DNA from: Erysipelotrichaceae bacterium
GTDB taxonomy: Bacteria; Bacillota_I; Bacilli_A; RFN20; CAG-826
Direction of reading: 5' to 3'
Assembly (NCBI GenBank): GCA_015058945.1
Contig: SVBF01000007.1
Coordinates: forward strand, 2,230 to 66,229
DNA: 64,000 nucleotides
This document shows, one piece after another, positions 14,920 through 18,391 of this stretch. The notes below the pieces were generated by a model. That model worked only from the letters and a program-made list of their open reading frames with translations. It had not been told where the DNA came from and ran no database searches. How positions within the stretch are numbered: position 1 is the stretch's first letter; the number at the start of each line of letters is the position of its first letter. A program made the translations under genes and the position numbers.

Positions 14920-14955
14920 TAATTGCATATTTTTTTGAAAAAGTATGCAGTTAGA
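14920..14955. repeat. 36-bp direct repeat, left copy, flanking the Fic cassette
   Basis: TAATTGCATATTTTTTTGAAAAAGTATGCAGTTAGA is identical to 16030-16065. It contains the internal inverted repeat TGCATA...TATGCA and overlaps the Fic stop codon. Confidence 0.7.
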
Positions 14956-16015
14956 TCTTGTAATACTTTGCGTATTTTCCGCTTTGTATCATCTGAATTT
15001 GCTTTTGCTTCACAAGTTCACCCAACGCTTTTTCTATTGTGGTTCTCGTCAAATTGATAAGGACTTCCTCGATATCAGCTTTGCTTATTGGTGCTTTGGC
15101 GTCGTTTATCACTCGCAATGTTTTGTCATTTGCGAAGCCGTGCATCGAATTAACTTCAATAATATAGGCTAACTTGGAATAACCATCCTTTAAGCAATTG
15201 AGCATAAAATGAACAAAGAAACCGTAATCGTTATTGCTTTCGTGCCATCCGATCGAAGACTTTTCCAAGGCTTCGTAATACCTTTCAACATTATTCAAAA
15301 TTACGTATGAAAGAGAATAATAGCGATCTAAATCATAGCCGTATTTCAAAAGCAAAAAAGTCGTTAAAAGTCTCGACACTCTTCCGTTGCCGTCATAAAA
15401 AGGATGTATGCACAAGAAATCCAGTATGAAGACAAAGATCGCTAATAACGTATTGCACCCAACATCATTCGCGCATTCGTTAAACTGATATACCAAATTG
15501 CCCATTAAGCCTTCGACATCTTGCGGCTTAGAAGGAATGAAAACAGTTCTCACCATGTTTCCGTCCATATCGAATTCGCGGATATAGTTTTGTTCGGTTT
15601 TATATTTGCCGCCAAAATCAGGAGTCAAAGACTCATAGAGGAAATAATGCAAATCTTTGATATAAGACTCTGAAAGGGATTGGTATTTATAGACCTCAAA
15701 AACATTTTCCAGCGCCTTGTTGTAGCCAAATAGGAAATACTCCTCTTTCGTTTCTGGATCCATATGTTTCAAAAGGATATCTTCTTCGCGTCGTTTATTT
15801 ACCTTAATGCCTTCAATCTCGTTGCTCGAAGTAACGCTTCTTCGTTTGTTTAAATCATGTAAACGATTGAGCTTGATCTTTTTAGGCAGATTAAAGGCTT
15901 TCCCTCTATTTACTTCGACAGCCTGAAGCATGGAGATAATCAAGGGGTCGTTTAACCTTGAAACCTGTTCCTTTAAATCAATGAATCGCATGTCATTTTT
16001 GTAATATGATTTCAA
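14951..16015 (-). CDS. Fic-family protein (AMPylation/phosphocholination fold) with N-terminal inhibitory-helix motif
   Basis: Fic motif HPFYDGNGRVSR and an in-cis S-x-x-x-E-G inhibitory motif (SSNEIEG). Strongly AT-rich relative to its neighbours. Confidence 0.8.
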   Translation of the reverse strand: MKSYYKNDMRFIDLKEQVSRLNDPLIISMLQAVEVNRGKAFNLPKKIKLNRLHDLNKRRSVTSSNEIEGIKVNKRREEDILLKHMDPETKEEYFLFGYNKALENVFEVYKYQSLSESYIKDLHYFLYESLTPDFGGKYKTEQNYIREFDMDGNMVRTVFIPSKPQDVEGLMGNLVYQFNECANDVGCNTLLAIFVFILDFLCIHPFYDGNGRVSRLLTTFLLLKYGYDLDRYYSLSYVILNNVERYYEALEKSSIGWHESNNDYGFFVHFMLNCLKDGYSKLAYIIEVNSMHGFANDKTLRVINDAKAPISKADIEEVLINLTRTTIEKALGELVKQKQIQMIQSGKYAKYYKI

Positions 16016-16029
16016 TTATTTGTCAATTT

Positions 16030-16065
16030 TAATTGCATATTTTTTTGAAAAAGTATGCAGTTAGA
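16030..16065. repeat. 36-bp direct repeat, right copy, flanking the Fic cassette
   Basis: Exact copy of 14920-14955, lying just upstream of the Fic start. Confidence 0.7.
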
Positions 16066-16158
16066 ATAATCGATTCGGTATGTTGTAAAATGCCTGAAGC
16101 GCAATAAAAAAACGATAAATGGCTTTTTTGATGGTCATTTATCGTGCTTTGCCAAGTC

Positions 16159-16235
16159 TGGGGCGCAATACGGGAGTCGAACCCGTTCATGCTCGGTTCA
16201 CAGCCGAGTGTGTTCACCGTTTCACCAATTGCGCC
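16159..16235 (-). tRNA. tRNA-His (anticodon GUG) with encoded G-1 and CCA
   Basis: GGCGCAATTGGTGAAACGGTGAACACACTCGGCTGTGAACCGAGC...GGTTCGACTCCCGTATTGCGCCCCA. Anticodon loop CU-GUG-AA, discriminator C73 and extra 5' G are typical of tRNA-His. Confidence 0.75.
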
Positions 16236-17980: not shown

Positions 17981-18391
17981 TTACGGTCTATCCGCGCTTT
18001 CGTTAACCTTTTTGTCCAGTGGGCGGGCGAAATGGAGTTTCAGGAGCTCTTGGATCAAGGTCACCCTACCGCCCTTGAAGACGCGTTTTAGGTGATATCG
18101 GCACTGCTCGTGGGTCACTTCAAGAAACACCAGTTGCACCGCCCCGCTTTGCGCATAGGCGCGGCAATAAAAGAAAGACTGCCGTTCCGTATCAAAGCTC
18201 ACGAAATCCGGTTTGCGCAAAATGCTCGAGAGTTCCTCGATGTAGGCTAGATATGTATCCGGCCTTTTGGACGCGATGTCGTTAAGTTGTTCCTCGCGAA
18301 GATAGATGTTGACGTCCCCGCTTAAGGAAATGTCCAAGGCGCGCTCGGTCGCCCGGTTGATGCGCCCTACTTTTAGTGGTTCGTTATACAT
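17981..18391 (-). CDS. hypothetical protein (136 aa)
   Basis: Clean ORF with RBS GGAGGT. No family recognised confidently; a faint resemblance to small RelE/barnase-like nuclease folds is unsupported. Confidence 0.45.
   Translation of the reverse strand: MYNEPLKVGRINRATERALDISLSGDVNIYLREEQLNDIASKRPDTYLAYIEELSSILRKPDFVSFDTERQSFFYCRAYAQSGAVQLVFLEVTHEQCRYHLKRVFKGGRVTLIQELLKLHFARPLDKKVNESADRP

Follow-up and report, generated by a model that had tools for sequence, protein, structure and literature searches.

The 64,000-nucleotide stretch analysed here (contig SVBF01000007.1 of an Erysipelotrichaceae bacterium, hereafter the window) contains, next to a tRNA-His gene, a 1.1-kb segment in which a single fic gene is enclosed by two identical direct repeats (Table 1). 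We interpret this segment, 14920–16065, as a minimal, self-contained gene cassette that was acquired horizontally; coordinates are positions in the window unless a contig is named, and labels made of L and a number denote contigs or loci fetched for comparison. The repeat, TAATTGCATATTTTTTTGAAAAAGTATGCAGTTAGA, is a 36-mer present in exactly two copies in the window, both on the plus strand, without a mismatch between them and spaced 1110 bp from copy to copy. No third copy was found in the 64 kb at up to 3 mismatches, 0 of 100 shuffles gave a match, and the pattern TGCATA-N14-TATGCA occurs in the window only at these two places. Accepting 2 mismatches lengthens the direct repeat to 42 nt. Only one credible open reading frame (ORF) lies between the copies; it runs on the minus strand from an ATG start, and its TAA stop (14951–14953) falls inside the left repeat. 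The tRNA gene, on the fic strand, lies 93 nt beyond the right repeat.

GC content is 0.34–0.39 inside the unit compared with 0.50–0.60 outside it, the cassette mean being 0.361 against 0.532 for the window, and GC at third codon positions (GC3) is 0.445 in fic against 0.68–0.77 in six neighbouring genes. An identical arrangement occurs in independent ENA, JGI and Logan contigs (8 places listed out of 20 contigs), and since it is present in contigs from three sources it is not an assembly artefact. A preliminary description of the window had reported an AT-rich single-gene Fic unit between two identical 36-bp direct repeats with a TGCATA/TATGCA palindrome, an in-cis SxxxEG inhibitory motif, a distance of about 95 bp from the right repeat to tRNA-His, and a repeat that supplies the fic stop codon on one side and promoter-proximal sequence on the other. 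All of this agrees with the measurements given above and below, the right-hand copy ending 3 nt from the -35 box.

Table 1. Features of the Fic cassette and its tRNA neighbour in the window
Feature	Position	Strand	Basis or remark
Stop-side 36-bp palindromic repeat, arms TAATTGCATA / TATGCAGTTA, 14-nt A/T spacer	14920..14955		Holds the fic stop codon; outer cassette boundary
Predicted class II fic gene, SoFic/CccR type, 346 amino acids, stop codon included	14951..15991	-	Pfam, PADLOC, PDB, AlphaFold2, Foldseek
C-terminal winged helix-turn-helix, residues ~287–346, presumed DNA-binding module	14954..15133	-	AlphaFold2 model, Foldseek
Fic active-site motif HPFYDGNGRVSR, residues 196–207	15371..15406	-	Translation, alignment
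N-terminal inhibitory motif SNEIEG, of the form (S/T)xxxE(G/N), residues 56–61	15809..15826	-	Translation, alignment
Putative sigma-70-type promoter	15998..16026	-	Read from the sequence; layout seen in homologues
Promoter-side 36-bp palindromic repeat, presumed auto-operator	16030..16065		Sequence; position kept in homologues; other outer boundary
tRNA-His(GTG), neighbour outside the cassette	16159..16234	-	NUDIX / tRNA-His / Fic cassette order also in the distant L075/L067

A predicted class II Fic protein

The ORF matches the Pfam Fic family (PF02661, E = 7.9e-15, 55.9 bits at a cut-off of 24), and the active-site pattern HxFx(D/E)GNGRxxR is present and invariant in a 23-sequence alignment. 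Residues S56, N57, I59 and E60 of the SNEIEG motif are likewise invariant among the 23 homologues and G61 is nearly so; it is on account of this N-terminal inhibitory motif that we assign the protein to class II. Close homologues are all 346 amino acids long. The best solved relative is PDB 8uqu (E = 6.5e-38), followed by CccR 7xux (E = 8.4e-10), CbFic2 8cil and BT_2513 3cuc. The PADLOC SoFic model matches residues 46–344 with E = 8.1e-36, while the NCBIfam SoFic equivalog model gives 36.6 bits against a cut-off of 550, so that the protein is a distant SoFic relative and not an ortholog or equivalog. An AlphaFold2 model built from 23 homologues (mean predicted local distance difference test score 88.9) ends in helices at 287–297, 304–310 and 316–328 followed by a beta wing at 332–345. 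The match of this region to a Pfam winged-helix family is weak (TBPIP, E = 0.0055), and Foldseek returned near-full-length alignments (~345–375 columns) to CccR 7xux, CbFic2 8cil, SoFic 3eqx/3zcn and Dde_2494 4rgl. By sequence and model, the gene is predicted to encode a class II Fic protein with a winged helix-turn-helix domain (Fic-wHTH), distantly related to the other members of a group to which the single-gene anti-phage SoFic also belongs. The SoFic-type family is listed by PADLOC as a single-gene anti-phage defence and contains toxic enzymes; EcSofic is reported to be so toxic that cloning worked only under three lac operators (PMC12249575).

A conserved palindrome at the putative fic promoter

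Homologues of 51–88% identity were taken with their surrounding DNA for comparison of the site. The 36-mer is a near-palindrome, and the site common to the homologues reads TCTAAYTGCATA-N14/15-TATGCARTTAGA, with arms of 10–12 bp that are conserved in sequence and an A/T-rich spacer that differs freely between cassettes. The arms show no compensatory changes and a C/A mismatch is retained; the outermost arm base is changed symmetrically, from T...A to G...C, in the 55–58% identical homologues L116 and L119. Every homologue examined, down to 55% identity, carries one copy upstream of fic, and its placement is fixed: the palindrome ends 3 nt before the -35 TTGACA in the window, L020, L046, L075 and L119, and its distance to the ATG is unchanged in L021, L026, L048, L066 and L116. 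In the window the putative sigma-70-type promoter consists of TTGACA at 16021–16026, a 17-nt spacer and a -10 TACAAA at 15998–16003, a layout repeated in L075 and L119 (both with consensus TATAAT boxes) and also in L046. The -10 box ends 6 nt before the ATG (6–7 nt in homologues) and there is no Shine-Dalgarno sequence; because the -10 abuts the start codon in this way, the fic mRNA is probably leaderless, and the recurrence of the layout suggests that leaderless transcription is a trait of this family of fic genes.

A palindrome kept at this position invites comparison with proteins of the same architecture. For CccR, which is a class II Fic-HTH protein, autorepression has been shown by experiment: it binds its own promoter at a pair of 10-bp inverted repeats with 26 bp between them, and 70 Å separate its HTH domains (PMC9755527). 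The SoFic dimer likewise binds its own promoter (bioRxiv 10.64898/2026.07.09.737422). Given these precedents and the conserved promoter palindrome, the repeat is probably the auto-operator of a Fic-wHTH dimer, and we infer that Fic itself binds the site. Judging from its distribution, the repeat is not simply a duplicated attB and is foremost a conserved palindrome of protein-binding type beside the fic promoter, because the upstream copy is present in homologues that have no downstream copy (L026, L119). A much more distant fic on L108 (1253–2383, minus strand; 376 amino acids from a TTG start, 34% identical) has an unrelated 11-N28-11 inverted repeat upstream, at 2359–2408 of that contig, and lies 290 nt from one of the solo palindromes described below.

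The stop-side copy

A second copy lies at or just after the stop codon in homologues of at least 72% identity (the window, L066, L046, L020, L021, L048/49 and L067/75) and also in the 58% identical L116; the copy-to-copy distance in these two-copy cassettes is 1110–1117 bp. Only the upstream copy is present in L026 (70%) and L119 (56%). Between the copies of L116, 1 of 20 arm positions is changed compared with 7 of 14 spacer positions (Fisher p = 0.004); since the arms match while the spacer has diverged, selection is keeping the downstream arms, and this copy is no decaying scar. On this pattern of substitutions, the downstream copy is a functional element. Read as fic-sense RNA, the stop-side copy of the window would fold into a hairpin (-15.3 kcal/mol) with a U-rich run behind it; this run is not general and is missing in other cassettes, for example L066.

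We noted a conserved 28-amino-acid ORF (MVI[AT]RIK...IRIIDIGEWLEKQ; L075 5698–5784 and L037 3165–3251, both on the minus strand) that comes after the stop-side palindrome and a promoter-like TTGAYA. It is missing from other cassettes and was rejected as a general cassette part.

The cassette in different gene neighbourhoods

The cassette was found in at least nine different gene neighbourhoods. When seven cassettes were compared with 150-nt flanks, mean pairwise identity was 0.3–0.4 in the flanks and 0.65–0.8 between the outer edges of the promoter-side and stop-side copies, changing sharply at either edge; BLAST end-points agree, and the boundaries in all seven contexts lie within a few bases of the palindrome edges. 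The Fic proteins of the window and L075 share 81.5% identity, but the adjoining NUDIX proteins no more than 36%. By this contrast and by its base composition the cassette is of recent foreign origin, having kept a low GC3 in a high-GC genome.

The two copies of a cassette resemble each other more than the copies of different cassettes do. Spacer mismatches within pairs number 0, 0, 0, 1, 2, 0, 3 and 7 compared with a mean of 7.25 between cassettes, and the window and L066 cassettes, which share 79.5% DNA identity, differ by a central CA/TG flip that is found in both copies of each. Because spacers are shared within a pair and differ between cassettes, and because the central flip affects both copies, the two copies must have been homogenised, which could reflect gene conversion, cycles of unequal exchange or a one-copy intermediate. 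The direct repeat is of variable extent, between the 36 nt of the window and the ~60 nt of L075, whose repeat also takes in the -35 box and some of the promoter spacer. Neither the length (14 or 15 nt) nor the sequence of the palindrome centre is constant. Such a variable extent and centre are not typical of the crossover core of a recombinase.

The order NUDIX / tRNA-His / cassette recurs in two very distant hosts, with the insertion 58–93 nt downstream of tRNA-His. Together with a solo site beside tRNA-Gly in L037, this shared position is hard to take as chance and hints at some targeting. In other contexts the direct neighbour of the cassette is a 2.4-kb gene (L001 227–2610) whose 712-amino-acid product is a collagen-like repeat protein; this gene is present in L001/L066 and absent from L098. 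The collagen-like gene was considered as a second cassette and rejected, since no palindromes stand at the L001/L098 indel junctions and the indel is thus not palindrome-bounded.

Empty and solo sites

Three comparisons pair an occupied site with an empty one that retains a single palindrome. L037 is the empty counterpart of L075/L067, with both flanks ~91–92% identical; L108 is that of L048/L049/L065, with 962 nt at 91% on one side and ~80 nt on the other; and L072 and L044 correspond to L120, the L072 spacer being the same as that of L120 and the upstream flank of L044 being homologous to L120. A further solo site, in L030, is 33/34 identical to the window site and lies between two convergent genes, one of them homologous to a gene of L112, on a contig with a GC content of 0.50. 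Rfam revealed no RNA family in the conserved flank beside the solo sites.

The closest relative found is L112 (NUDIX 70.5% identical, tRNA-His 74/76 identical). Three other contigs from relatives of the window organism end at or within 3 nt of the tRNA-His 3' end (tRNA at L113 4615–4690, L114 4615–4687 and L115 4632–4707), which suggests that the content downstream of tRNA-His varies between strains.

Several of the solo-site contigs have features of their own. L030 carries a group II intron D1-D4 fragment at 40–100 (Rfam RF01998, 38.3 bits). In L044, 83-nt direct repeats (644–726 and 2533–2615, 89% identical) flank a 461-amino-acid ORF that by eye resembles an AAA-type ATPase; the solo Fic-type palindrome sits just inside the first of these repeats, and the repeat matches the 3' end of a gene in L072. 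In L092 (3329–4110) a solo palindrome that retains a degenerate -35 remnant precedes, by ~100 nt, two genes resembling by eye a VapBC-type toxin-antitoxin pair. Finally, a ~55-nt perfect palindrome, AAAAGGCTTCTAATTGCATATTAAAAGSCTTTTAATATGCAATTAGAAGCCTTTT, whose 12-bp arms are those of the Fic operator, recurs in 13 human-gut contigs (L032, L051, L057, L059, L062, L073, L074, L078, L084, L087, L093, L105 and L111), none of which has a fic gene within the sequence retrieved; either a solo site or a terminator with no relation to Fic could account for it.

Recombinases, vehicles and copy number

No recombinase domain was found among neighbours within ~3–6 kb of the cassette in six contexts (the window, L020, L021, L026, L116 and L119), nor any recombinase family among the best 25 Pfam/PHROG families listed for 53 further ORFs of the window. 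Viral contigs gave two chance pattern matches and no Fic relative, and known plasmids held nothing more than 36% identical to the window Fic; no phage or plasmid vehicle was thus found. A scan of 185,579 species-representative genomes with the core pattern returned five matches, four of them chance palindromes and one homologous (L001), and among 82 metagenome loci there were at most two palindromes, and one cassette, per locus.

Logan contigs of 1109–1134 bp that both start and end inside the repeat were considered as evidence of a circle and rejected, because a k=31 graph is expected to break at a 36-bp repeat and gives the same contigs. The 1224-bp contig L120 was also rejected as a circle, having no terminal overlap. 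The first 53 nt of its end stretch (1–110) are the exact reverse complement of the flank that follows and part of the palindrome, which most likely reflects a hairpin artefact of the assembler, made where the sequence is palindromic.

The preliminary description had pictured a site-specifically inserted, integrase-less cassette bounded by its repeats, at a locus where related genomes would show an empty site with a single copy. The cassette and its bounds hold, no integrase gene being present within ~6 kb and the boundaries coinciding with the two copies. This picture is supported in part, by the foreign character and sharp edges of the cassette and by the single-copy empty versions; neither a recombinase nor a circular form was seen in the contexts and contigs searched, and site-specific insertion is a deduction from these patterns. 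Empty sites with one copy exist in other lineages (L037, L108, L072/L044), not at the window's tRNA-His locus as represented by L112. The description had also named an alternative, that the 36-mer is a common intergenic repeat, which the copy numbers above contradict.

Comparison with known systems

The protein and its presumed auto-operator belong to a known kind. The window Fic shares with CccR of Yersinia pseudotuberculosis (7xux) its domain architecture, fold and N-terminal (S/T)xxxEG motif, although sequence similarity is low (E = 8.4e-10). The presumed operator of the window recalls that of CccR, in which a long spacer parts a pair of 10-bp inverted repeats at the protein's own promoter. 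The CccR spacer is 26 bp and the operator overlaps the -35/-10 region, whereas the window site has a spacer of 14–15 bp and lies just upstream of the -35. CccR is a type VI secretion system effector, and the part of the report consulted (PMC9755527) mentions no stop-codon operator, flanking direct repeats or cassette behaviour. With SoFic (Shewanella oneidensis SO_4266, E. coli EcSofic) the likeness lies in the PADLOC model match and the dimeric Fic plus wHTH architecture, to which may be added features reported for SoFic itself: binding to its own promoter, toxicity and a need for tight control. The window Fic differs in its sub-cut-off NCBIfam score and in that no downstream gene for a small antitoxin (AS1, reported for E. 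coli Sofic) fits inside the cassette, and the SoFic texts consulted describe no flanking operator repeats.

As a mobile unit, the cassette resembles several known kinds in part. Integron cassettes, including clusters of attC sites lacking integron-integrases (CALINs), are also single genes with imperfect palindromes in direct orientation and no internal recombinase, and their presence/absence polymorphism also leaves one site; in one orientation the repeat ends ATCTAAC / GTTAGAT even resemble RYYYAAC / GTTRRRY. The window site, however, has 34–36 nt compared with 57–141 nt for attC and has no L'/L'' structure, its arms are conserved in sequence and not in structure, the cassette has its own -35/-10 promoter, no arrays, attI or IntI were seen here, and the hosts are Bacillota-like. 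Membership was rejected, the resemblance amounting to a few bases and none of attC, a promoterless ORF or an array being present. The pdif modules and Xer-dependent integrative mobile elements exploiting Xer (IMEX) are likewise small and recombinase-less, often carry toxin-type genes and have short palindromes used by host enzymes, but pdif sites are 28 bp (11-6-11) in inverted orientation, whereas the window sites are direct with a 14–15-bp spacer, and the cassettes are not at the chromosomal dif site and show no convincing dif similarity by eye. With a resemblance limited to a few bases, dif/Xer membership was rejected as well. Cis-mobilizable elements (CIMEs) and staphylococcal cassette chromosome (SCC)-like elements without ccr share direct-repeat bounds, the lack of an integrase and a location near a tRNA or conserved gene; their repeats are attB core copies arising from integration, whereas the window repeat belongs to the regulatory region of the gene and is missing at the related empty locus. 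The cassette thus falls outside the integron, pdif and att-element kinds by virtue of its site size and structure, repeat orientation, internal promoter, lack of arrays and the missing repeat at the empty locus. The literature yielded no account of fic genes lying between duplicated operators that delimit presence/absence alleles, and a search for Fic cassettes with flanking repeats turned up integron papers only.

How the cassette may be regulated and how it may move

The reading we favour, and hold to be reasonably probable, is that of a compact SoFic-type Fic cassette which probably represses itself and has a copy of its own operator at either end, where it is lost and regained. A Fic dimer with widely separated recognition helices would bind the two 10–12-bp half-sites (TCTAAYTGCATA) across the 14–15-bp A/T-rich spacer; at the promoter-side copy, which abuts the -35, this would result in autorepression. 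The stop-side copy would bind the same protein, acting as a further operator, as a roadblock or as the anchor of a loop, and might insulate a dangerous gene from surrounding transcription. Because the copies are direct repeats, they may also be the places at which the unit recombines: recombination between them would delete the gene and leave one solo operator, and solo operators would be the places of re-entry. Our best guess is that the host recombines the repeats by a homologous or replication-linked route, perhaps helped by a protein that pairs them, and that no dedicated integrase is at work; a dedicated recombinase supplied in trans seems somewhat less likely than such host functions.

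Several observations weigh against this reading. Homologous recombination on 36 bp is inefficient and fits poorly with insertion beside tRNA-His in two distant hosts. At the L112 locus tRNA-His is followed by a terminator and then an acetyltransferase gene, with neither fic nor palindrome, so that no pre-existing 36-mer is there to explain how a first copy entered a new site. No empty allele was seen in the window's own species, the cassette being in place in all contigs read (20 with the Fic side, 22 with ParA), and no circular or tandem junction in any contig. The empty/occupied comparisons involve metagenome contigs whose homology is short on one side (~80 nt in two cases) and not clean orthologous alleles. 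On the regulatory side, a generic promoter scan did not list the fic promoter, whose -10 TACAAA is weak in the window, and a host factor could bind the palindrome instead of Fic.

Were the repeats attL/attR-like sites of a dedicated tyrosine or serine recombinase encoded elsewhere, with the palindrome centre as the crossover or overlap region, the cassette would resemble integron cassettes, pdif modules, CIMEs or ccr-less SCC elements. The sharp boundaries in seven contexts and the single-copy empty versions speak for this, as do the placement at tRNA-His beside otherwise dissimilar NUDIX genes in two hosts, the L037 solo site at tRNA-Gly and a layout readable as 13-8-13 (lox-like) or 16-2-16; the centre, common to both copies of a cassette, different between cassettes and flipped at its dinucleotide in both copies between the window and L066, behaves as if overlap partners had to match. 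We nonetheless regard it as rather unlikely, given that no recombinase gene lies near the cassette in six contexts, that a centre of no fixed sequence or length would be unusual for a crossover core, that the repeat extends over anything from 36 to ~60 nt and may include promoter sequence, that the site is kept upstream of homologues with no second copy, and that a target site is lacking where the tRNA-His locus of the relative is empty. The site, at 34–36 nt, is moreover far shorter than attC, and integrons are not known in this phylum. Less probable again, though related to the favoured scheme, is that the operator doubles as the recombination site, Fic or a recruited host factor pairing the copies so that a one-site circle is precisely excised and re-enters at solo operators. 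If true, this would make the cassette a self-contained mobile defence gene without a recombinase of its own, a kind of element not described so far.

A purely regulatory pair, acting through looping or as a roadblock or terminator and having no part in mobility, would require the solo sites to be generic deletion by-products and the gene to spread by ordinary transfer and illegitimate recombination. The CccR and SoFic precedents for binding to own promoters, the selection on the downstream arms, the hairpin and U-rich run on the stop side of the window, the very tight repression demanded by Sofic toxicity and the single locus occupied in all contigs read for the window's species are compatible with such a role. 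Random insertion, however, should leave a variable donor flank, yet seven contexts share boundaries at the palindrome edges; the spacers are unconstrained yet homogenised within pairs, the same tRNA-His position is used in very distant hosts, and the U-rich run is missing elsewhere, as in L066. We consider this account quite unlikely. Very improbable, finally, is a generic dispersed intergenic repeat (of the repetitive extragenic palindrome, miniature inverted-repeat transposable element or terminator-hairpin type) that flanks fic by chance. The 36-mer does form a strong hairpin (-23 kcal/mol on the plus strand), and palindromes with the same arms occur away from fic in metagenomes, the 55-nt one in 13 human-gut contigs among them. 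Against it stand the two copies in 64 kb, the maximum of two per metagenome locus, the one homologous match in the genome collection, arms conserved without compensatory changes and with the C/A mismatch retained, and the fixed position relative to -35 box and stop codon.

Neighbouring genes

Outside the cassette, a 136-amino-acid ORF at 17984–18391 (minus strand) has weak, sub-cut-off matches to the PBECR3/PBECR2 nuclease families (phage-Barnase-EndoU-ColicinE5/D-RelE-like); its synteny is conserved in L112–L114 and it has no PADLOC match. Several window proteins outside 12–19 kb match PHROG tail fiber, tail sheath and tail assembly families (E = 1e-26 to 1e-35) and could be repeat-rich surface proteins or prophage remnants.

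Implications

Genomes exchange their single-gene defence and toxin genes quickly, and for the smallest of these little is known about the means of movement. The unit described here is near the minimum for a regulated gene, comprising an operator, a promoter, a probably leaderless ORF and a second operator placed on the stop codon, and the comparisons indicate that the cassette travels and disappears exactly at its operator copies. With the palindrome as a tag, metagenomes can be searched for cassettes of this type and for the sites at which they dock. Should the two operators shield a toxic enzyme from its surroundings and also serve its gain and loss, they would constitute a new link between regulation and mobility and would provide a testable model of how defence genes may hop between distant Bacillota without integrases.

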